DNA of 64,000 nucleotides from Candidatus Cloacimonadales bacterium (lineage in GTDB: Bacteria > Cloacimonadota > Cloacimonadia > Cloacimonadales > JAIOQZ01), in contig OY762463.1 in the NCBI GenBank assembly GCA_963665815.1, forward strand, positions 320,001 through 384,000, read 5' to 3'. Positions 3,690 through 22,066 of the stretch are shown piece by piece. The notes under the pieces are model-generated. The model was not told the DNA's origin, did no database searches, and saw only the letters and a program-made list of their open reading frames with translations. The translations under genes and the position numbers were made by a program. How positions within the stretch are numbered: position 1 is the first letter of the stretch; each line of letters begins with the position of its first letter.

Positions 3690-3970
3690 CCTTTTTTCGA
3701 TGAGTTGGCTATATGAAACATATAATTGGAAGGAGCTCCTGCTGACTATGAAAGACTGGGCTTCAGTGCTGAGATTCGAAATAATGTACATCGCATAGTG
3801 TTTTGCCTTATTGAACGAATTTAAATCACTTACAAAAGTGATTTGTCGAACGTATAATCTTGCATCTTCCAGTCTCCATAAAATCTAATACCTTGTAAGT
3901 CATATCAAACAATGGGAACAATATTATAAAGGAATCCCCATAAAAATCCAACAAATCTTATACTTTTTTA

Positions 3971-3998
3971 TTGACATCCTGAAACAAAGAGCTAACTT
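3971..3998 (+). promoter_or_regulatory. Candidate sigma70-type promoter upstream of the flagellin gene
   Basis: TTGACA (3971-3976), 16 nt spacer, TAACTT (3993-3998). Confidence 0.45.
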
Positions 3999-4110
3999 AT
4001 TGTCAGGTTAGATAAGCACAATCTCCACAGAACAGGTTACCAAGGTCCCAATACCCTCTGACAATTATTATATTGATAAATCATGCAGCAGCTATATATT
4101 GGAGATATAT

Positions 4111-4998
4111 ATGGCTTTAAGTATTGATACTTCGTACTTGTCAAACATGATTTCAGGCAATCTGAACAATATTATTGATAATCTGACAACTTCCCTGGAA
4201 AGATTATCATCCGGGCTGCGTATAAACTCTTCTTCGGACGATCCGGCCGGACTTGCCAAAAGTGAATTAATGCGTGCTTCTATTGCAACCTACGATCAGG
4301 CCAAAGCAAATGCAAACGATGCTGTTTCTCTTATTCAGACTGCAGAAGGATCGCTGGATATCATTGATGAGAAACTCACCCGTATGAAAGAACTTGCTGA
4401 GCAATCATCTACCGGAACATATACAACATCTCAACGCTCAATTATGCAGTCAGAGTTTACACTTATGGGAGCAGAAATTGACAGGATTGCAGGTTCTACA
4501 ACGTATAATGGCATAAAACTCCTCGATGGCTCTCAGGATTCTTCTTCTACCTGGACATCAAGTGGGGGATGGACTGAACCTGATGGTGGTATTCGCATTC
4601 AGGTTGATGATGGTTCTTCAAGAGCTGAGGACTACTACTATATAACAATTCCTGATACAACTTCCAGTAGTCTGTTCAATAATCAGACAGTTGCAATCTC
4701 AACTCAGACAGCAGCTACTAATGCTCTGGATGTTATCAACACAGCAATAATCAATAAAGAGAATGCCAGAAGCTGGCTGGGAGCTCTGGAAAACAGACTT
4801 GAGGGCACAATAAACAATCTTGAAGCCAAAACTCTTGCACTTGAAAGTGCTGAATCAAACATAATGGATATGGATATTGCCACAGAAATGACCGAGTATG
4901 TCAAGAATACAGTTTTACTGCAGGCGGCAACTGCTATTCTCGCTCAGGCGAATGTATTTCCTTCTCTCGCTTTGGATCTTATAGAAGGACTTAATTAG
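4111..4998 (+). CDS. fliC: Flagellin (minimal D0/D1 type), isolated from other flagellar genes
   Basis: SLERLSSGLRINSSSDDPAGLA, SLIQTAEGSL, LGALENRLE, AESNIMDMDIATEMT, ILAQAN; ATG at 4111 follows GGAG. Confidence 0.93.
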   Translation: MALSIDTSYLSNMISGNLNNIIDNLTTSLERLSSGLRINSSSDDPAGLAKSELMRASIATYDQAKANANDAVSLIQTAEGSLDIIDEKLTRMKELAEQSSTGTYTTSQRSIMQSEFTLMGAEIDRIAGSTTYNGIKLLDGSQDSSSTWTSSGGWTEPDGGIRIQVDDGSSRAEDYYYITIPDTTSSSLFNNQTVAISTQTAATNALDVINTAIINKENARSWLGALENRLEGTINNLEAKTLALESAESNIMDMDIATEMTEYVKNTVLLQAATAILAQANVFPSLALDLIEGLN

Positions 4999-12333: not shown

Positions 12334-12684
12334 ATAACCTTTCCAATATTTTTTCAACTCAAACAATGATAATAAGAATTTACTTGTAAAGATATTCTTA
12401 AAAAAAATAGTACTCCGGTAAATATCTGAGAGCTTTGCATAATAGTAAATCAAGCTGCTTTAGTATTATGAATCAAAATAAAATACATTAGGTGATATTT
12501 TTGAGTTCATCAGGAATACTTCTTTGGAAAGCTTATTTTGAGTCGGGATTTGATTTAAAAAAGGAGGATTCCAATTTGACACAACAATTTTCTTGACCAT
12601 TTACCGCGAATGAGCTCAATTTTGCCATATTAATGGAGTAAGGAGGAAGGATTGTTCGTAGGCACTAACTCTTTGAATTTTCAG

Positions 12685-12831
12685 GGAGACCATTATTATC
12701 CGTTCAGTATGGGGATACCGGGACTTTGCTACCAGTATATGAATTGTAAGTTTATTGGTGAAAACAGAGAAATTATTGACGAAATGGATCTTGACTGGAT
12801 ATATTGGGGAAAACGGTTCCTTGAAAAGTAA
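12685..12831 (+). pseudogene. Rhs core C-terminal remnant (cassette 1)
   Basis: Manual translation GDHYYPFSMG...CKFIGENREIIDEMDLDWIYWGKRFL matches the Rhs YYPFG..YKF.GKE...GWY.YGARF core; truncated by an inserted hairpin element. Confidence 0.85.
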
Positions 12832-12908
12832 TGTGCCTCCTATGATTCTCGGATTACATCCTACGAATTTCGGAGGTGAGACTCTCGGGCTTAGTCCTAC
12901 GAGCTCAT
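12825..12908. mobile_element. 84-nt double-hairpin element interrupting the Rhs core (copy A)
   Basis: Absent from the intact core at 20354-20520; folds GCCTCC/GGAGGT, GATTC/GAATT, GGAT/ATCC and GAG-CTC/GAG-CTC, GGGC/GTCC; homologous to 15343-15427. Confidence 0.6.
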
Positions 12909-12943
12909 AGCTTGACGGAGCAGAGTCCGCATATAACTACTAT

Positions 12944-13873
12944 GTGCAGATGATACGCATAAAAGCTCAGTTAGTTAAACGGAGAATGGAATATGAGATT
13001 AGACTTGCAGAAGATCTTGCTAAATCACATATACCCATGTACTGTTGTCAAACCGGTCCTATGTTGGGTTGGTTTGAGGACATGGATGATGCAAGTGAGA
13101 AAGCGGAACAGGTAGCAGATGAGGATAGAACTACAGTAGATGGCTCAACAAGTGTTGATGGTCCGGCAACTCCGCCAACTGAACCTGCTGTTCCAGCTCA
13201 GGAAGATCCACCAGGAGAACCATATAATACAAGAGATACAGAGGGCAAATCTGAACTTGTAAGAAGTGAGATGATAATTGACCAGGAAGCAACTGAAGGA
13301 AGTGATAAAAATTATAAAGCACTATGTAAAGCCTCTAACGCTACCTATAAGTTCTTAAATGAAACTAGATTTATTTCATTGGGATATCATCCATCTGATA
13401 AATTATTTGGGCTAGTGAATGGAACAAAGTATGATATAAATAATGGTTTTATATCAAGGAATATTTATGTTAGAGGAAAAAGAACTAATGTAGTTTTGTG
13501 GGATCATAATTCTACATATGGAAAAGAAGAGAAAGTTAGTATATTTGGCAATATACCTCTTATCGGCAGATTATTCAGTAAAACTCATACTGCTTATTTT
13601 ACGCCATATCATACGTTTCAGCATGAAACATATCACGTGAAGCAGAAAGCTTCACTGGGTGCGTTTTACCATTTTAGAGGAAGAACACTAAACGAATTTT
13701 TCTGTATGAAAGCAGTAAAATATTCTAAACTAACAATGATACTTAACTTAGACGATTCGAAGTTTGAAAATATAATGCAGAACAATGACAATGCAATTTA
13801 TCATAATTTTAGGCAATCATACGGGAACACTGATTTCATATATGATAGTGATCTCTATGGAGTCCCTAAATAA
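12944..13873 (+). CDS. Orphan Rhs toxin tip 1, putative zinc metallopeptidase
   Basis: Follows the LDG junction in frame; P/E-rich linker; HETYH (HExxH) with downstream NE; no clear RBS. Confidence 0.7.
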   Translation: MQMIRIKAQLVKRRMEYEIRLAEDLAKSHIPMYCCQTGPMLGWFEDMDDASEKAEQVADEDRTTVDGSTSVDGPATPPTEPAVPAQEDPPGEPYNTRDTEGKSELVRSEMIIDQEATEGSDKNYKALCKASNATYKFLNETRFISLGYHPSDKLFGLVNGTKYDINNGFISRNIYVRGKRTNVVLWDHNSTYGKEEKVSIFGNIPLIGRLFSKTHTAYFTPYHTFQHETYHVKQKASLGAFYHFRGRTLNEFFCMKAVKYSKLTMILNLDDSKFENIMQNNDNAIYHNFRQSYGNTDFIYDSDLYGVPK

Positions 13874-13884
13874 GGTAGGTTATT

Positions 13885-15114
13885 ATGAAAGTATATTTGA
13901 TTTTTTACCTAGTTCTATTTTCTACAATACTCTTCTCAATTGAAGAAAGCACTACATGCAAAAATACTGTTAATATAATGAAATCGAAGAATTTCCCCGA
14001 TGAAATTTACGTTAGAACCTTTACAATTGATAGATTTGGCAACATAATTTTGATCACATCAAATAGAAACCAGAAAACAAAAATTAATATGTTCAATATG
14101 ATAAAGCTGAATAGTAAACTTGAGAAAATATGGGAAGTTCAACTCAATATCAATGGCGTTGTTCAGAAAATAACCACTGATAAAATGAATGATATTGTAA
14201 TTGTAAGTGAATACTTCTCATTTGAAAAAAGTATTTCATCTATCAGTAAGTACAATCAGGATGGTGAATTAATATGGACAACTACACCGAGGACAAAAAA
14301 CGAGTTTGCGATTAGGGATATTGATTTTGATGAATCAAATAATATTTATATTGTTGGATATCATAGTGGATATGTGCGGATTGGATTAGAAATTATGAAT
14401 ACGTTTTTACCTTCCTTCAGAGATGGTATTATTGCGAAATTAACATCTGATGGTGATTGGGTTAAATGTAAAGATACTGATTTTTCGTACAGTGATTATA
14501 TCAGTAACATAGAAATCATTGGTGAGACAATATATACATGGGGAGGGTTTGAGAGTTGGAGTGGAATTCTCAAATCTTTTTTCAGTGAAATAGAAGCTGA
14601 ATATAATCAAAAGTATTATATTGCAAAATATAGCACTAACTTGAAGAAACAGCTTGAGTTTCGGTTAAATGATGAAAGCAGTGCAATCTTAGGCCCTGAA
14701 TTTCCCATTGGATCTTATGTGTTAACTTCAAAGTATAACAAAAACTTTATTGCTCTAGATTATATTGACTACTCATCTACACGTTATAATGCAAATTCCC
14801 AATTAAATGTTGATGTAATGATTATAGATTCCAACCTGAAAGTATTATACTCCGTTTTTGAAATTAAGTCTTTTAAAAACCAGTCGATAGAATCTTTTCA
14901 GAGCTGCATATACAGGTCTGTTAATAGATCAAAGTCTTGTATATATGATTTTTCTAATCAAACAATGTATATTATCAAGCCAGAAGAAAATGAATGGATT
15001 GAACACGGTTTAATTGATAATGATCTGTTATATCTTCTTAAAGGAAAAAAAAATGAAAACTCAAAAAATAACTTTTACACTTTGGATATTCTCAAAATAG
15101 ATAAATCTGAATAA
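13885..15114 (+). CDS. Putative immunity protein 1, secreted beta-propeller
   Basis: Immediately after the toxin tip; signal peptide; SBBP-like DIDFDESNNIYIVG and IAKLTSDGDW repeats. Confidence 0.7.
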   Translation: MKVYLIFYLVLFSTILFSIEESTTCKNTVNIMKSKNFPDEIYVRTFTIDRFGNIILITSNRNQKTKINMFNMIKLNSKLEKIWEVQLNINGVVQKITTDKMNDIVIVSEYFSFEKSISSISKYNQDGELIWTTTPRTKNEFAIRDIDFDESNNIYIVGYHSGYVRIGLEIMNTFLPSFRDGIIAKLTSDGDWVKCKDTDFSYSDYISNIEIIGETIYTWGGFESWSGILKSFFSEIEAEYNQKYYIAKYSTNLKKQLEFRLNDESSAILGPEFPIGSYVLTSKYNKNFIALDYIDYSSTRYNANSQLNVDVMIIDSNLKVLYSVFEIKSFKNQSIESFQSCIYRSVNRSKSCIYDFSNQTMYIIKPEENEWIEHGLIDNDLLYLLKGKKNENSKNNFYTLDILKIDKSE

Positions 15115-15122
15115 GAATTTAC

Positions 15123-15148
15123 AGCCTGCCTCGTGCAGGCTTTTCTTT
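15123..15148 (+). terminator. Rho-independent terminator, cassette-boundary copy 1
   Basis: AGCCTGC-CTCGT-GCAGGCT followed by TTTCTTT. Confidence 0.8.
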
Positions 15149-15237
15149 CTCATAACTCAAAAGACAGAGAAGAAATTGACGAAATGGATCTTGACTGGAT
15201 ATATTGGCAAAAACGGTTCCTTGACCCGTAAATAGGT

Positions 15238-15274
15238 TTTGGGAGACTCTCGCCTAAGGCTCCGAGCTCTTTGT
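15238..15274. mobile_element. 37-nt single-hairpin insertion in the Rhs core (copy C1)
   Basis: TTTGGGAGACTCTCGCCTAAGGCTCCGAGCTCTTTGT replaces AGG of the intact core (ATAGGT-AGG-TGGCA at ~20425-20440). Confidence 0.6.
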
Positions 15275-15342
15275 TGGCATTCTCTTGATCCGGCAGAGCA
15301 GTTTGACAGTCCGTATGTATATTGCGGTAACAATCCTGCAAA

Positions 15343-15427
15343 TAAACAAGGTGTCTCCTATGGTCTTCGAACATAAGTTCTACAGACTTCAGAGACGAGA
15401 CTCTCGGACTTAGTCCTGCGAGCTCAT
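15343..15427. mobile_element. 85-nt double-hairpin element interrupting the Rhs core (copy B)
   Basis: Replaces CTTTGTAG of the intact core; same fold as 12825-12908 with compensatory changes. Confidence 0.6.
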
Positions 15428-15462
15428 AGCTTGACGGAGCAGAGTCCGCATATAACTACTAT

Positions 15463-16647
15463 GTGCAGATGATACGCATAAAAGCTCAGTTGGTTTTACA
15501 GAGAATGGAATATGAGATTAGACTTGCAGAAGATCTTGCTAAATCACATATACCCATGTACTGTTGTCAAACCGGTCCTATGTTGGGTTGGTTTGAGGAC
15601 ATGGATGATGCAAGTGAGAAAGCGGAACAGGTAGCAGATGAGGATGGATCTACAGTATATGGCTCAACAAGTGTTGATGATCCGGCAACTCCGCCAACTG
15701 AACCTGATATGCCAGCTCAAGAAGGACCACCGGGAGAACCATACAACACAAATGAAATTGAAGAAGGTAGTCATAAAATAGATCATAGATCAATCACGGT
15801 TGACTCTGAAGCAACTGAGTACGTTCAGTCACAAGTAAAAGAAAAACTTGATGGTAAGACAAGGTCTGATGGTGAACCTATTGAATTGGGAGCAAATGGT
15901 TTGAATATCGATAATATAGTTGTGTTGAAACATAATGATTTTGATAATCCTGCCGATTTTAATGATACTTTGGTGGAGCAAATAGTTTTAACAGCAACTG
16001 AAGGAAGTGATAAAAATTATAAAGCACTATGTAAAGCCTCTAACGCTACCTATAAGTTCTTAAATGAAACTAGATTTATTTCATTGGGATATCATCCATC
16101 TGATAAATTATTTGGGCTAGTGAATGGAACAAAGTATGATATAAACAATGGTTTTATATCAAGGAATACTTATGTTAGAGGAAAAAGAACTAATGTAGTT
16201 TTGTGGGATCATAATACTACATATGGAAAAGAAGAGAAAGTTAGTATATTTGGCAATATACCTCTTATCGGCAGATTATTCAGTAAAACTCATACTGCTT
16301 ATTTTACGCCATATCATACGTTTCAGCATGAAACATATCACGTGAAGCAGAAAGCTTCACTGGGTGCGTTTTACCATTTTAGAGGAAGAACACTAAACGA
16401 ATTTTTCTGTATGAAAGCAGTAAAATATTCTAAACTAACAATGATACTTAACTTAGACGATTCGAAGTTTGAAAATATAATGCAGAACAATGACAATGCA
16501 ATTTATCATAATTTTAGGCATCATACGGGAACACTGATTTCATATATGATAGTGATCTCTATGGAGTCCCTAAATAAGGTAGGTTATTATGAAAGTATAT
16601 CTGATTTTTTACATCGTTTTTATTTCTACGATACTTTTCTCAGTTGA
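15463..16647 (+). CDS. Orphan Rhs toxin tip 2, HExxH metallopeptidase-like; C-terminal frameshift relative to tip 1
   Basis: C-terminal ~190 aa almost identical to tip 1; 1-bp deletion near 16520 (AGGCATC vs AGGCAATC) bypasses the stop at 16575-16577. Confidence 0.7.
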   Translation: MQMIRIKAQLVLQRMEYEIRLAEDLAKSHIPMYCCQTGPMLGWFEDMDDASEKAEQVADEDGSTVYGSTSVDDPATPPTEPDMPAQEGPPGEPYNTNEIEEGSHKIDHRSITVDSEATEYVQSQVKEKLDGKTRSDGEPIELGANGLNIDNIVVLKHNDFDNPADFNDTLVEQIVLTATEGSDKNYKALCKASNATYKFLNETRFISLGYHPSDKLFGLVNGTKYDINNGFISRNTYVRGKRTNVVLWDHNTTYGKEEKVSIFGNIPLIGRLFSKTHTAYFTPYHTFQHETYHVKQKASLGAFYHFRGRTLNEFFCMKAVKYSKLTMILNLDDSKFENIMQNNDNAIYHNFRHHTGTLISYMIVISMESLNKVGYYESISDFLHRFYFYDTFLS

Positions 16648-17815
16648 AGAATACAACACGTGTAGAAGTAGTTTTAATTTAATAAAATCAAAGAACTTCT
16701 CTGATGATGTTTACGTTGAGTCTTTTACTACTGATAGAAATAGTAATATTATTATGATCACATCAAATAGAAAGAAGAAGCCAAAAACTTTTTCCTTCAA
16801 AATGACGAAATTAGATAAAAATCTGGAAAGAGTATGGGAAATTCAACTCAATTCGTTGGGTTTTCCAGTTATCTATACTGATAATAGCAACAACATCATT
16901 ATTGTTTGTCACGAGGGCACACCTATAAAAAATATTTCTTCAATAAGCAAGTTCAGTGAAAATGGAAAACTTCAATGGACAACTAAGCCGAAAGCAAAAA
17001 ATGATTTCAGTATTTCAGATATGGAATTTGATGAATCCAATAATATATATATTGTTGGAAATCTTCATGGATATGTGAGAGTTGGATTTAATATAATTAA
17101 TACAATATTACCATCTTTCAGAGATGGATTCATTGCGAAATTAACCCCGAATGGAGACTGGATTAAATGTAAAGATACTAATATTCCGTTCGATGATTAC
17201 ATTAGTGATATTGAAATCATTGATGGATGTATATATACATGGGGAGGTTTTGAGCGTTGGAGTGGATTATTAAGATCTTTGTTTAGAGATTTTGAAGCTA
17301 ATTATGAAGCCAAATGTTATGTTTCAAAATATAATACTGACTTAAAGAAACAGCTTGAATTCAAATTAAATATTGATAGTAATGCTTTTTTGGGTGAAAA
17401 TTTTCCACTATCACCATATATTTCTACAACTGTGCACAATAACAATTTTGTTGCTATAGACACTGGGTATTCTTTTGATGAAGAGAGCAATGGAGAACAT
17501 CAATGGAATGCTGATATAATGATTTTAGATTCTATGTTAAATATCCTGTTCTCTGAGTATGAAAAAAAACTATTCTCTGAGAAATTACCCGTATCATTTC
17601 ATGATTGTATATTTTATATTGACTCAAAATTCAAATCAATTCTATACGATTTCTCAGATCAAGCATTATATTTATTAAAGCCAGAAGAAAATGAATCATT
17701 TGAAAAAGGTTTTATTGATCATGATATGTTATATATTCTTAGTAGTAAGAAAGATATAAACTCTAAAAATTATTCATTCATTTTAAATGTTTTCAAAACA
17801 GATCCCTTTGAATAA
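16589..17815 (+). CDS. Putative immunity protein 2, secreted beta-propeller (paralog of 13885-15114)
   Basis: Colinear with immunity 1 (FDESNNIYIVG, LPSFRDG.IAKLT..GDW.KCKDT, IYTWGGFE.WSG) but clearly diverged. Confidence 0.7.
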   Translation: MKVYLIFYIVFISTILFSVEEYNTCRSSFNLIKSKNFSDDVYVESFTTDRNSNIIMITSNRKKKPKTFSFKMTKLDKNLERVWEIQLNSLGFPVIYTDNSNNIIIVCHEGTPIKNISSISKFSENGKLQWTTKPKAKNDFSISDMEFDESNNIYIVGNLHGYVRVGFNIINTILPSFRDGFIAKLTPNGDWIKCKDTNIPFDDYISDIEIIDGCIYTWGGFERWSGLLRSLFRDFEANYEAKCYVSKYNTDLKKQLEFKLNIDSNAFLGENFPLSPYISTTVHNNNFVAIDTGYSFDEESNGEHQWNADIMILDSMLNILFSEYEKKLFSEKLPVSFHDCIFYIDSKFKSILYDFSDQALYLLKPEENESFEKGFIDHDMLYILSSKKDINSKNYSFILNVFKTDPFE

Positions 17816-17823
17816 GGATTTAC

Positions 17824-17849
17824 AGCCTGCCTCGTGCAGGCTTTTCTTT
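17824..17849 (+). terminator. Rho-independent terminator, cassette-boundary copy 2
   Basis: AGCCTGC-CTCGT-GCAGGCT-TTTCTTT. Confidence 0.8.
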
Positions 17850-17938
17850 CTCATAACTCAAAAGACAGAGAAGAAATTGACGAAATGGATCTTGACTGGA
17901 TATACTGGCAAAAACGGTTCCTTGACCCGCAAATAGGT

Positions 17939-17975
17939 TTTGGGAGACTCTCGCCTAAGGCTCCGAGCTCTTTGT
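17939..17975. mobile_element. 37-nt single-hairpin insertion in the Rhs core (copy C2)
   Basis: Identical to 15238-15274; net +34 nt shifts the Rhs core frame. Confidence 0.6.
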
Positions 17976-19085
17976 TGGCATTCTCTTGATCCGGCAGAGC
18001 AGTTTGACAGTCCGTATGTATATTGCGGTAACAATCCTGCAAACTTTGTAGAGCTGGACGGAGCAGAGTCCGCATATAACTACTATGTGCAGATGATACG
18101 CATAAAAGCTCAGTTGGTTTTACAGAAAATGGAATATGAGATTAGACTTGCAGAAGATCTTGCTAAATCACATATACCCATGTACTGTTGTCAAACCGGT
18201 CCTATGTTGGGTTGGTTTGAGGACATGGATGATGCAAGTGAGAAAGCGGAACAGGTAGCTGAGGAGGAGGATTCTGAAAGCATGAATGGAGCAGGCAGTG
18301 CTGAAACTCAAGAAGAACCTGTTGCTCCTCCACAAAGTGAAACACCATCTACAAGTGGTAATTCACCTGATAGTCAGGAAAGACAAGCTGATGAGGAAAT
18401 TAATCAAAAACAAAATGAGGTAATTGAAAATGACTCAGGAAATCTGCAGTTAGAAAACCCTGGGGAACAGGAGAATGGTTACTCCGGTGGTGGCGGAGGA
18501 GGTCCAATTACAATTGATATCTCTGCTTTGACTGAGGGAGATTCTCTGAGTAATGGTGCTATTTTATTTGAGTTAATAAAAGGATATGATGTAACTGAAG
18601 ATATTGACACTCCTGCAGCTCTAGAAGCAGCATTTCACAAGGAGGGGAAGAATAATCGTCATGCATCATACACTGCACCAGAAATTGATCTAAGTCTTGT
18701 AAAAGGATTCATAATTAGTAATTTAAAAGTACAACCAAATAGTGAACAAGATAATTCACATGATGCTATTACCTTCAAGAACTATCTCAATGCAATTGTC
18801 GTAATAGATCTTATACAAGGAAAGCAAATAAATCGAAAAATTTTTGATACTATTTTTGATAATGCGTTTAGTAGTATAGTTGATGGCATTTCGGGTGGTG
18901 CATCATATCTTCCAAGAAAGGCAGCATCTAGTGGAGCTACATTGTTAAAAACATCAAATGACTACAGGCAATTTCGAGAATATATACGTGAGGATATTAG
19001 TAATGGTTTAGATGTTCGTCACGGAAATATAGTTTTTTGGAACAGGCTATATTATGATTTTGATCGACGTAGAGAGAATAACTAG
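17940..19085 (+). CDS. Orphan Rhs toxin tip 3 with core tail, unknown toxin domain
   Basis: WHSLDPAEQFDSPYVYCGNNPANFVELDG Rhs terminus; shares ~65 aa after the junction with tips 1 and 2, then is unrelated; the TTG start lies inside the insertion. Confidence 0.8.
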   Translation: MGDSRLRLRALCWHSLDPAEQFDSPYVYCGNNPANFVELDGAESAYNYYVQMIRIKAQLVLQKMEYEIRLAEDLAKSHIPMYCCQTGPMLGWFEDMDDASEKAEQVAEEEDSESMNGAGSAETQEEPVAPPQSETPSTSGNSPDSQERQADEEINQKQNEVIENDSGNLQLENPGEQENGYSGGGGGGPITIDISALTEGDSLSNGAILFELIKGYDVTEDIDTPAALEAAFHKEGKNNRHASYTAPEIDLSLVKGFIISNLKVQPNSEQDNSHDAITFKNYLNAIVVIDLIQGKQINRKIFDTIFDNAFSSIVDGISGGASYLPRKAASSGATLLKTSNDYRQFREYIREDISNGLDVRHGNIVFWNRLYYDFDRRRENN

Positions 19086-19098
19086 TAAAGGAATAGAA

Positions 19099-20307
19099 AT
19101 GAGAAATATTAGATTAACGGGTATTGTTTTAATATACTTTATATTATGTAGTTTGCTTTCTTATGAAGGAGTAAGTAATGAAATATTAAGAAACAATGAA
19201 GAAAACTATATTGCAACGACCTTTGCTTTAGTAAAAAAACTTAACATCCCTCAAAGAAAAATAAAGTTTGCAATTAGTCACAAAAATAGTAAATTGATAG
19301 AATTTGCAAAGACTTGTAATGATACTCTAAAGGAAATACCTCTTGAAAAAAGTTTTGAACATACTGCTCAAAAGTATATGATGCATAGTATTATGCACAA
19401 TCCTATTGGCTGTATTAAAGACGCTGTCAAAGAGTTTTCTGAAGCTGAAAAAATGTACAATGAATACATAATCGAGTCTGAGTCAATAGCAGATAGCCTT
19501 GGTATTGAATTAACTGATAGTTTATATTTTGAGTACGCATTAGGATTAGTCAGTAGAGTAAAACATCTTGAGATTACCTATAATTACCTTTTCAGAAGCC
19601 TCCTTCTATGTGAACAATACGATATAATACTCGAAGAAATAGAGAAATTCAAAATAATTTTCCTCTCAGCAAGACTTTTAGAACCCGGAATCACACTGTC
19701 ATCAGATATTACTTATGCTGATAATTTCAACTATTATTTTGCATTGAAAGCTTATTGCTACGATAAGATAGGGGAAATTGATAAGTCAGATATGAACCTG
19801 AGAGAAACATATTTATTCTTTGAGCATCCATATATAAACTCAATTTTCTATTCCGAAGTCTTAGCAAGAATATTCATAGAGTGGGAGTTAGATTACATTG
19901 AACCTAAGGTTTTTATAGATAATTTTATTAACCACATTTATATAGTTGCTGGACCGGAATTCATGCTGAGAAGTCATTTTTTAAGGAAAATTCATCCTGA
20001 TAATTACCTGAATATAATTGAAAATGAGTTGGATGCACACTTTATAAGAGTAAATAAAAAAAAGAACAATGCTGAAAGAGAAGGTTACATTAATAACTTT
20101 GAAAGGATATTCATGCATCTGGCATTTCTGCATTACGAAAAAGGAAATAGTAGTGAAGCAATGCATTGGTTCAAGAGATCACTTACTGAGTATTCAACAT
20201 TTGATGGTGACTGGGATTACTGGCTAAGGTATCGATATTATGAGAAAGGTGAAAAAGAAGCTTTGCTGAAACTGAAAGAGCAGTATTTGAAAGAAAAAGG
20301 GAAATAA
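19099..20307 (+). CDS. Putative immunity protein 3, exported helical/TPR-like
   Basis: Start MRNIRLTG with a hydrophobic signal; TPR-like LAFLHYEKGNSSEAMHWFKRSL and KAYCYDKIGEIDKS; directly after tip 3. Confidence 0.6.
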   Translation: MRNIRLTGIVLIYFILCSLLSYEGVSNEILRNNEENYIATTFALVKKLNIPQRKIKFAISHKNSKLIEFAKTCNDTLKEIPLEKSFEHTAQKYMMHSIMHNPIGCIKDAVKEFSEAEKMYNEYIIESESIADSLGIELTDSLYFEYALGLVSRVKHLEITYNYLFRSLLLCEQYDIILEEIEKFKIIFLSARLLEPGITLSSDITYADNFNYYFALKAYCYDKIGEIDKSDMNLRETYLFFEHPYINSIFYSEVLARIFIEWELDYIEPKVFIDNFINHIYIVAGPEFMLRSHFLRKIHPDNYLNIIENELDAHFIRVNKKKNNAEREGYINNFERIFMHLAFLHYEKGNSSEAMHWFKRSLTEYSTFDGDWDYWLRYRYYEKGEKEALLKLKEQYLKEKGK

Positions 20308-20314
20308 ATTGATC

Positions 20315-20336
20315 AGCCTGCTCCGTGCAGGCTTTA
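20315..20336 (+). terminator. Rho-independent terminator, cassette-boundary copy 3
   Basis: AGCCTGC-TCCGT-GCAGGCT-TT. Confidence 0.75.
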
Positions 20337-20353
20337 TCTTCTCTAGGTTTTGA

Positions 20354-21577
20354 AAAAACAGAGAAATTATTGACGAACTCGATTTAGACTGGATATATTG
20401 GGGAAAACGGTTCCTTGACCCGCAAATAGGTAGGTGGCACTCTCTTGACCCGGCAGAGCAGTTTGACAGTCCGTATGTATATTGCGGTAACAATCCTGCA
20501 AACTTTGTAGAGCTGGACGGAGCAATCTCATTATCATATCATCAGGAGCAGTATGCTAAATTACAAAGTTTGTACCGGGGATTCAGGGGAATATACACTG
20601 ATAGTAATGGATGGAATGATGTTGCAGAGTTTGAGCAAATGATGGATAGAGAGATACAAGAGTCTGGGCACTGGTTGCTTTGGGTGACTGCTGGAAGAAG
20701 TGCAATAAAGGATAAGAAAAAGGGGAAAGCTGAGGATCAACAAAAAAAATGGGAAGTAGAAGATGTAAAAAAAGGTTTGGAAATAAAGAAGAAAAAAGAT
20801 GATAGAAAGAAGTTCATTTTAAGTATAGTCAATGCAATTGTAAATAATCCACTAACCAATGTTGCCAGTACTATCCTGCAAGGAGCTATTGATATTGTAG
20901 GCTTAGAAGGTATTCTTGGTGATAATGGAATTGTTTCTAATTTTATAAGTAATATGTTTCAGGATCAGCCTAAAATAGAAATTACTACAGTTAGTGATGG
21001 AATATACTACTCACCAAGAATGCACGACTGGATCAATGTTCCACAAGGATCTAGTATGCAGCACCCTATTCCTTCAATTCAAGCTCAACAGCAATATGGT
21101 AAAGACCATACCGATAGAATAAGTATGGAAATAGTTAATTATAGCGATTATTATGGTATCTGGGGTGAAAACCAGGAGCATTATGAAAGATTTGCTGTTG
21201 GAGTCGATGCAACATCATCAACAGTCAGTGTAGCTGCTTCCAGTATATCAATGCGCATTGCTTATTTGAGAGGAAGCAATAAGGGAATGTTAAGATATGG
21301 GCAATTAACTGCTGCACACCTATCGCTTGCTTTAATGAAATGGACTGCATGTGGAACTGGGCAAAAACCTATTGATATTCCTCACATTACTGAAGCTGAA
21401 TTAGCCTTGACTATTCCAGCTAAACTAAAATGGGATGTTGAAGATTATATCTTTGCAGGAGTAACTTACGGAGGGGTTACAATGACTAAAATTGTTTATA
21501 ACAATACTCACTACTATTACAGATTCAGTCAGGAAATGAGAAGAAAACTTCTTGGTAAAAAGAAAGTAATGAAGTGA
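20354..21577 (+). CDS. Orphan Rhs toxin tip 4 with uninterrupted core tail (no start codon); possibly membrane-active toxin
   Basis: Open frame from 20354: KNREIIDELDLDWIYWGKRFLDPQIGRWHSLDPAEQFDSPYVYCGNNPANFVELDG, continuing into ORF 20570-21577. Confidence 0.8.
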   Translation, partial: KNREIIDELDLDWIYWGKRFLDPQIGRWHSLDPAEQFDSPYVYCGNNPANFVELDGAISLSYHQEQYAKLQSLYRGFRGIYTDSNGWNDVAEFEQMMDREIQESGHWLLWVTAGRSAIKDKKKGKAEDQQKKWEVEDVKKGLEIKKKKDDRKKFILSIVNAIVNNPLTNVASTILQGAIDIVGLEGILGDNGIVSNFISNMFQDQPKIEITTVSDGIYYSPRMHDWINVPQGSSMQHPIPSIQAQQQYGKDHTDRISMEIVNYSDYYGIWGENQEHYERFAVGVDATSSTVSVAASSISMRIAYLRGSNKGMLRYGQLTAAHLSLALMKWTACGTGQKPIDIPHITEAELALTIPAKLKWDVEDYIFAGVTYGGVTMTKIVYNNTHYYYRFSQEMRRKLLGKKKVMK

Positions 21578-21595
21578 TAATTAAGGATAGCAATT

Positions 21596-22066
21596 GTGAC
21601 ATATAAAAAATTTATTGTATCTTTCCTTGCAAATTTGATTGATTATGCTTGCTTTACAATAGTTAAGTACTTAATTATATTTGATGACTTATATACAGTA
21701 ACAAGGCATATTAATGATAGACCATATCTTCAAGTATCATATATGATCTATCCGCTTCTTGTGTTCATTGTATCAATATTATTTAGACGGTTACCTTCCT
21801 TAGGTATTGGAGAATTAATTATGAGGATTAAAACTGAATATTCATATAATTGGAAAGATGTACTTATTTGGATAGCTGCAACATTGTTTATTTGTAATAT
21901 TATTGATATGATAATATTGAGTAAATTATTGTTAAAGATTATACTTTGTATTCCATTACTACGACTCACAAGAACATCTGCACATACAGGAACATCTTTT
22001 GGTACTGCATTGATTATTTTTCTTAAAAAGAAAAAAGGAGTTGGAATTATCCATGAAACTGAATAA
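21596..22066 (+). CDS. Putative membrane immunity protein (RDD-like)
   Basis: 3-4 hydrophobic segments; FLANLIDY and GIGELIMRIK resemble RDD family motifs; follows tip 4. Confidence 0.55.
   Translation: MTYKKFIVSFLANLIDYACFTIVKYLIIFDDLYTVTRHINDRPYLQVSYMIYPLLVFIVSILFRRLPSLGIGELIMRIKTEYSYNWKDVLIWIAATLFICNIIDMIILSKLLLKIILCIPLLRLTRTSAHTGTSFGTALIIFLKKKKGVGIIHETE

Follow-up and report, generated by a model that had tools for sequence, protein, structure and literature searches.

Hairpin modules under structural constraint in the orphan Rhs cassettes of a Cloacimonadota genome

Repetitive extragenic palindromic (REP) sequences, with their BIME and REPIN relatives and their RAYT partners, are short imperfect palindromes that occur in many copies within restricted lineages, divide into subfamilies with differing stems, gather in clusters and tandems, and are presumed to be recognised in folded, single-stranded form. 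The same can be said of an element built of hairpin modules that we describe here from the genome of a Candidatus Cloacimonadales bacterium (G000, one 3.96-Mb contig, 36% G+C), and that was noticed in a 64-kb stretch of it (G000:320001-384000, the whole of which is called the window below) within orphan Rhs toxin cassettes. The element departs from the REP pattern in its setting, since REPs are predominantly extragenic, whereas it lies mostly in toxin-cassette coding homology, with its hairpins all in direct orientation; and while a RAYT gene is flanked by its own repeat, the RAYT-like gene of this genome is flanked by another. REPs also carry a conserved GTAG tetranucleotide 5' of the hairpin, which is absent here, the 5' tail of the element being (T)AAKGT, with CTAC/GTAG found only inside the loop region of its second hairpin (hp2).

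Other described repeats resemble the element in part. The palindrome-associated transposable elements (PATEs) derived from IS200/IS605 share with it two similar sub-terminal hairpins with extra-helical bases, and lack, as it does, terminal inverted repeats and target duplication; they differ in that no TnpA/TnpB partner or defined target tetranucleotide was found for the present element, which is far smaller (75-114 nt) and varies in its number of modules. Miniature inverted-repeat transposable elements, or MITEs, carry terminal inverted repeats matching a parent insertion sequence (IS) and a target-site duplication, both missing here. Rickettsia palindromic elements (RPEs) are in-frame inserts within genes, as set out in PMC10969869, and they and intragenic MITEs share with our element the placing of palindromic repeats inside coding sequence, often in frame and free of stops. 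RPEs, however, occupy many unrelated functional genes, whereas the element is confined to one gene family, where silent copies carry it and expressed copies do not; it measures about half as much as an RPE, and neither Rfam nor sequence comparison shows any homology between the two. A folded attC site of an integron consists of a stem, an unpaired spacer, a stem with extra-helical bases and a variable tip, and its core sites follow the R''/R' consensus RYYYAAC / GTTRRRY. Like attC, the element conserves structure over sequence, has unpaired or extra-helical bases between its stems and lies beside promoter-less cassettes in arrays; unlike attC, it has no R'/R'' core sites (its outer stem is CCTCC/GGAGG), no integron integrase and no attI, and it lies at the 5' junction and at several positions per cassette, embedded in homology used for ordinary recombination. 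We found no description of such an element in the accessible parts of the literature on Rhs orphan toxins and palindromes and on the Rhs genes of Cloacimonadota.

Orphan Rhs cassettes recombine into an expressed gene via core homology (PMC3967940). Four of them stand in tandem on the plus strand of the window (about 12.7-21.6 kb). Each consists of a short head that shares homology with the Rhs core end, the C-terminal region of a toxin, which starts from LDG codons, an immunity-like gene and a terminator-like hairpin; the third has a weak match, under cut-off, to the NCBIfam Rhs-associated core domain. Our preferred reading, in which we place roughly even confidence, is that we are dealing with a non-autonomous repeat of the REP/MITE/RPE kind, specific to its lineage and recognised by its structure, which persists in silent cassettes, multiplies through the duplication of cassettes and through short-patch conversion, and brings about deletions. 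It looks most likely to be young, genus-restricted selfish DNA. An uncatalogued, structure-constrained repeat of REP/MITE kind had been proposed by the sequence-only reading of the window, and covariation, 24 full copies and the lack of an Rfam match bear that proposal out.

Fold and covariation

Each hairpin module of the element runs from a stem of 5-6 bp through an asymmetric internal loop (5'-TC/3'-T(A/G)C) and a second stem of 3-4 bp to a small loop. In the first hairpin (hp1) an outer CCTCC/GGAGG stem with its TAT/TC loop encloses one such module, and hp2 and hp3 each add another; a copy has one, two or three hairpins, and some copies hold two modules inside the outer stem. The internal-loop bases (TAT/TC and TC/T[A/G]C) are all invariant or nearly so, and the stems around them covary. 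Among the 18 copies of this genome from which a covariance model (R1) was built, 92.2% of cells pair and 9 of the 22 pairs have changed on both sides, with the proviso that the cells are not independent events, there being about four inner-hairpin types in all, common to both species that carry the element. In these copies all cells of helix 2 (100%) and 98.5% of those of helix 3 are paired, the observed covariation score was reached by none of 500 shuffles, and sliding the partners left 20-51% paired. In an alignment of 32 copies from the two species, which was fitted to the covariance model and so leans towards the structure, 92.0% of cells pair (21-52% with slid partners), 15 of the 22 pairs have changed on both sides, and helices 2-4 are paired in 98-99% of cells. 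Compensatory stem swaps with conserved internal loops, first noticed between two copies of the window, thus hold genome-wide and in two species. Likewise, the second hairpin with a repeated TC/TAC loop proved to be a real feature, its pattern matching twice in the window where none was expected from 100 shuffles, and 31 times in the genome, 30 of these within element loci. We infer from the invariant unpaired bases beside covarying stems that a protein recognises the element; no partner was found.

Covariation of this kind could also arise in a passive palindrome, where template switching and gene conversion copy one arm onto the other and give compensatory-looking changes without selection or a reader protein. 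Template switching has been reported to create and maintain hairpins (PMC8794818), and the inner hairpins of the element move as whole patches, so that many 'compensatory' cells stem from few events and about four types. Arm-to-arm copying would, however, erase the asymmetric loops (TAT/TC, TC/TAC) and the G-T pair, which are invariant across types and in both species, and hp1, hp2 and hp3 repeat one module plan in stems of differing sequence, on which grounds we hold this explanation to be decidedly unlikely.

The same pattern of invariant loop bases and covarying stems would be expected of a cis-acting RNA module, the sense hairpins of which are the target of an RNA-binding protein or nuclease, and through it decide how stable the transcripts of orphan toxins or immunity genes are or how they are translated. 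The hairpins would then be transcribed from a promoter-like site in each head, and an intergenic locus with tandem modules would be a small RNA with many copies of the binding site. Several observations fit: the cassette copies are all sense-oriented, 27 of 29 copies have, at the foot of helix 2, a G-U pair that favours the sense strand, a promoter match lies just upstream in three cassette heads, and the tandem-module locus is kept in both species. Yet the element occurs in one genus only and the arrays of the sister genus do without it, hp1 of the tandem locus is partly deleted in the sister species, and the copies vary in position and number, some being clearly degenerate. The antisense strand folds at least as well: its computed folding energy is -25.4 against -22.5 kcal/mol for the sense strand as RNA and -10.6 against -8.3 as DNA, and the C-A mismatch of some outer stems (those of the type of copy B, below) would be a G-U pair on the opposite strand. 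The earlier argument that G-T wobbles favour folding of the plus strand is therefore a weak one. As for the promoter match, it sits in conserved coding sequence, is present in the full-length gene too, and belongs to a phylum whose promoter type is not known. Taken together, these points make an RNA module unlikely, if not negligibly so.

The promoter match itself is a sigma-70-like TTGACG-18-TATATT (10/12; TATACT in the third) at window 12776-12805, 15176-15205 and 17877-17906, in the conserved coding head of three cassettes and about 30 nt upstream of the element or of its insertion site 1. The match may be due to chance, or may mark an internal promoter from which orphan immunity genes are expressed.

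The tandem-module locus (G000:3455800-3456300, locus L013 about 3800-4300) is a 905-nt intergenic region with hp1 and five tandem 30-nt modules at 3456000-3456200, against two modules in the sister species. The region also holds, two to three times, the repeat GGTACCCCCGGCG..CGATG(A/G)ATCGGGAAAC(A/G)CACG, and it gave no Rfam match at E <= 1 and no tRNA match.

In the 64-kb window Rfam gave no match at gathering score, and at E <= 5 within 12700-15500 it gave just two chance-level matches, elsewhere than at the element. A generic search for other TC/T[AG]C modules returned 38 matches against 23 in reversed-sequence controls, the excess being known hp1 copies, so that there is no second family. 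A ribozyme was considered for a two-module variant at G000:521823, which has CTGATGA-AAG between its modules, and was rejected, since neither the lengths of the junction strands (3, 7 and 2 nt) nor the order in which they come fits a hammerhead, and Rfam has no match. The element is not an intrinsic terminator (a G+C-rich hairpin with a T run) either: only some three-hairpin copies have hp2 followed by TTTTTT, and a terminator scan of the window picks the inter-cassette hairpins 15123-15141 and 17824-17842, not the element.

Copies, sites and range

Scanning with R1 found 35 matches in this genome, namely 24 full copies (E 2e-20 to 7e-8), four single-hairpin copies (E about 1e-3) and seven weak partial ones. 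The further copies predicted from the window therefore exist, and the sister species of the same genus (G001) has eight matches. Within G000, the core-ends of orphan Rhs cassettes, stretches of homology of roughly 250 nt, contain 17 of the 24 full copies, although core-ends make up only about 0.17% of the genome. Of the other seven, four stand between cassettes by a repeated segment, two at LDG junctions of headless cassettes and one in an ordinary intergenic region. In a census by the core-end peptides of two Rhs families, which recognised 27 core-end clusters, 16 clusters have one or two full copies (17 copies in all), one has a single hairpin only and ten are empty. The empty clusters include both full-length Rhs genes (3337 and 1354 amino acids, aa) and three long open frames (624, 579 and 538 aa), so that none of these five carries the element, and the 2951-aa Rhs gene of the sister species likewise has one uninterrupted core-end match.

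The copies occupy at least four core-end positions: site 0 (..EDENN/YHYG..), site 1 (..G/RW..), site 2 (NNPAN/.LDG, that is, before LDG/DPDG) and a fourth (FFSP/NDP). The enrichment at the Rhs core/toxin junction that had been suspected is thus real, if spread over these positions rather than one. The element ends in AAKGT.. and ..AGCTC-NTNGC, which are not mutual inverted repeats; no longer element with these ends was found in the genome, the R1 scan listing short copies only. The right flank starts with TGG at three of the four core-end sites, and TTTGG..TTTGT around single modules is a weak direct repeat only.

This placing raised the thought of a recombination signal of the attC kind, at which a recombinase or nuclease would cut the core/toxin boundary of silent cassettes and drive toxin switching. 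The element stands at that junction, short-patch exchange and deletions centre on it, and its architecture may be said to resemble that of a folded attC. Several points tell against a signal of this sort: the full-length genes have no partner site, the element takes at least four positions and up to two copies per cassette without an R'/R'' consensus, and none of the four tyrosine recombinase genes of the genome tracks it. The proposal is thus very unlikely, and the same absence of copies from the full-length partner genes, with the multiplicity of positions, speaks against the earlier suggestion that the element marks a recombination point. A more elaborate form, in which the modules are sites for a dedicated structure-specific nuclease or recombinase that cuts the folded strand and so drives short-patch conversion and cassette swapping, an attC-like polymorphic-toxin signal invented in one Cloacimonadota genus, is to our minds a long shot.

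The range of the element is narrow. R1 has matches in two of 61 genomes of the order (this one and the sister species), and in two of 151 genomes and one of 53 genera of the phylum. The sole match of a strict hp1 pattern in a species-genome collection was the sister species, two patterns had no match among metagenome contigs, and the encoded peptide was found in only six proteins of a protein collection, all of this genome, in a search of near lengths that left out longer proteins. Nothing was found by R1 in genomes G003-G007, and a genome of the sister genus (G006) has Rhs orphan arrays without insertions, 13 of its 14 matches to an 82-aa core-end being uninterrupted at 243-246 nt. The element is, therefore, dispensable for Rhs arrays.

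Within the window, the copies, the empty sites and the cassette parts that frame them are as follows, all on the plus strand.

12694-12834, plus strand: core-end homology (head) of cassette A, shortened by deletion between two element copies
12828-12911, plus strand: copy A with tails (R1 match 87.2 bits, E 1.4e-17); left tail GTAATGT 12828-12834, hp1 12835-12877, hp2 12878-12906, tail ATAGC
12911-15114, plus strand: cargo of cassette A; toxin C-terminal region from LDG (open reading frame 12944-13873) and putative immunity gene 13885-15114 (weak SBBP repeat)
15238-15274, plus strand: single-hairpin copy at site 1 of the second cassette (hairpin 15243-15269), after RFLDP..IG; R1 30.4 bits
15346-15430, plus strand: copy B with tails at site 2, between NNPANK and LDG (R1 87.3 bits); left tail ACAAGGT, hp1 15353-15396, hp2 15397-15425, tail ATAGC
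15430-17815, plus strand: cargo of cassette B; toxin of the type found in A (95-99% identity) and an immunity-like gene that has diverged (72-84% identity)
17939-17975, plus strand: single-hairpin copy at site 1 of the third cassette (hairpin 17944-17970); R1 30.7 bits
18042-18062, plus strand: empty site 2 of the third cassette, AAC TTT GTA GAG CTG GAC GGA = NFVELDG
20429-20521, plus strand: fourth cassette, both sites empty; site 1 GGT AGG TGG 20429-20437, site 2 20501-20521

In copy A, hp1 has the outer stem GCCTCC/GGAGGT, loop TAT/TC, stem GATTC/GAATT, loop TC/TAC and stem GGAT/ATCC; in copy B the stems are GTCTC/GAGAC, GGTCT/AGACT and GAAC/GTTC, and those quoted in the sequence-only reading are present as written. 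Copies A and B are identical at 28 of 44 positions of hp1 and 27 of 29 of hp2. The near-identity of flanks that had been claimed for them holds on the 3' side (243/250) and fails on the 5' side (25/40), the 5' flanks being unlike because in copy A a deletion has joined two insertion sites. The single-hairpin copy of the second cassette reads TTTGG + GAGACTCTCGCCTAAGGCTCCGAGCTC + TTTGT and replaces the AGG of the empty site, for a net gain of 34 nt that breaks the frame. Filled and empty forms of both sites can be compared within the array: single hairpins in cassettes two and three stand against AGG at site 1, copy B in cassette two stands against CTTTGTAGAG at site 2, and the fourth cassette reads ..RFLDPQIGRWHSLDPAEQFDSPYVYCGNNPANFVELDGA.. 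uninterrupted, as does the full-length 3337-aa Rhs gene elsewhere in the genome.

Remodelling and reading frame

The history of copy A can be read from the sister species, where one cassette (locus L043) has full copies at both site 1 and site 2. On its left, in context and in hp1 type, copy A agrees with the first of these, and on its right, in hp2 type and in context, with the second; it therefore arose by deletion between two copies, and the WHSLDP..NNPANK stretch was lost. Other copies have been remodelled as well: copy c2108 is without YHYGVRYYDPQLG, which in c2012 lies between two hp3 copies, and c1057 is fused at hp2 to an unrelated repeated segment. Two neighbouring copies, c2008 and c2010, show 11 differences within 21 nt of the hp1 inner hairpin and none in 150 nt upstream and about 120 nt downstream, and the inner hairpin of c2010 is identical to that of c2110, 100 kb away, from which it follows that inner hairpins are exchanged as patches. 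Copies also multiply along with cassette duplication. Short contigs of three runs of one sample over 12500-18300 gave only paralogous joins between repeated cassettes, such as the empty-site 'AGG', and are no test of excision.

A repeated segment of about 170-250 nt that occurs in several cassette heads carries, on the strand opposite to that of the cassettes, an open frame of 55-84 aa (..ITGVIGKTLILEFKGKSMVLSQDEQAEFGLIYSIEPDSVIVQVKD..), with eight tblastn matches and no Pfam or NCBIfam match; five element copies adjoin its 3' end. Its positions are the following.

G000:2823-2990 (minus strand), 1057872-1058036, 2104248-2104409, 2110570-2110734, 3358116-3358277 and others (locus L064:1521-1775, minus strand): copies of the repeated segment

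Insert lengths tend to keep the reading frame, a single hairpin with its linkers adding 36 nt net in the two places measured, hp1 with a short hp2 72 nt and the three-hairpin form 114 nt. Eight of the nine site-0 copies of the second Rhs family, as well as copy c1054b, are open from the head through the element into the toxin, and the sister species has one open copy and one with a stop. In the first Rhs family, to which A and B belong, copies shift the frame or bring in stops, with TAA lying in a loop or in the left tail and TAG in the right. In copy A both TAA (12829-12831) and TAG (12908-12910) are in the flanking coding frames. A TAG falls in the LDG frame of A and B because ATAG and then CTTGACGGA follow both (ATAG 12907-12910 with CTTGACGGA from 12911 in A, ATAG 15426-15429 in B). 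The in-frame TAG of the earlier reading accordingly stands for these two copies and falls as a family trait, most copies of the second family being in frame and free of stops; with frames so mixed, it is a local matter and not a trait of the element. Nor is the suggestion that the element silences its cassette supported, given the stop-free passage of those eight site-0 copies into the toxin and the element-free orphan arrays of the sister genus.

It might be supposed from the lengths and the open copies that the element is translated, as a loop of 12-38 residues that Rhs proteins tolerate or put to use once a cassette has been recombined into the expressed gene, a notion for which the in-frame gene inserts of Rickettsia (PMC10969869) offer a precedent. 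None of the five long or full-length Rhs frames carries the element, though, and the copies of the first family stop or shift the frame; stem changes moreover alter the peptide freely, so that the constraint is on pairing and not on residues. We regard a translated insert as highly improbable. An intron or a translational bypass was considered and set aside, there being no matching take-off and landing codons beside A or B, a stop as the codon before LDG, and no evidence of splicing.

Mobility, implications and neighbouring genes

Under our preferred reading of a structure-recognised, non-autonomous repeat, a protein would recognise the folded single strand, of DNA or possibly of RNA, by its invariant unpaired bases; insertions in expressed genes would be selected against, so that silent cassettes may act as safe havens; the mobilising enzyme may no longer be present; and the narrow range is what would be expected of young selfish repeats.

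A linked HUH (RAYT/TnpA) or GIY-YIG nuclease gene had been named as something to look for, and none was found. Two Y1 genes are present, neither near an R1 match. One is the 162-aa RAYT-like gene (G000:2133689-2134177; locus L071:1369-1857, minus strand), which is flanked by its own inverted repeats (ACCATTCGCAAGG..), a different REP family; the second, of 210 aa, was not found in the sister species, which carries the element. The genome has no TnpB-type (Cas12f1-like_TNB) match. Its four tyrosine recombinase genes (Phage_integrase matches) all lie outside the window. One of them, of 362 aa, is found together with a 108-aa excisionase-like neighbour (G000:2057416-2058840; locus L015:1417-2841) where the orphan array belonging to the 3337-aa Rhs gene has its distal end, a pairing that suggests an island border.

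A number of findings weigh against the preferred reading. No parent IS or enzyme gene lies beside any copy, and the 362-aa recombinase was not found in the sister species, yet is present in genomes without the element. Comparisons of filled with empty sites showed neither terminal inverted repeats nor target duplication, and filled sites are without 3-16 nt of the empty form. Just one of the 24 full copies is outside the toxin-cassette arrays, which would be odd for a plain REP. Both species use the same sites and share hairpin types, so no proof of recent movement was found. The sense orientation of all cassette copies and the open frame of eight of nine site-0 copies could both mean selection at the RNA or protein level. 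There is, finally, no orientation bias with respect to replication, four arrays being co-oriented and five loci head-on when orientation is judged by skew (origin near 2.7 Mb, terminus near 0.52 Mb).

The interest of the element lies in how it differs from the usual intergenic, transposase-linked repeats, being modular, with its unpaired bases fixed, without a visible enzyme and nearly confined to the junction of silent toxin cassettes. Orphan cassette arrays can, it appears, serve as reservoirs of selfish DNA, and the repeats in turn reshape the arrays: they shorten the homology needed for recombination into the expressed gene, fuse or delete cassette parts, and exchange patches over 100 kb. 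An element that shortens or interrupts the core homology should affect recombination into the expressed gene. With filled and empty sites in one genome and a sister genus free of the element, this is a clean natural case for studying target choice and the rate of toxin switching.

Some features of the surroundings remain to be recorded. No full-length Rhs gene adjoins the four cassettes of the window (12400-21600), the full-length gene of their family being 1.7 Mb off at G000:2083822-2093832, and upstream of the cassettes lies an 893-aa gene on the opposite strand with an HHH_3 domain. The toxin-immunity pair that is duplicated in cassettes A and B (window 12861-15241 against 15380-17942) has diverged unevenly, the toxin stretches keeping 95-99% identity and the immunity-like genes 72-84%.

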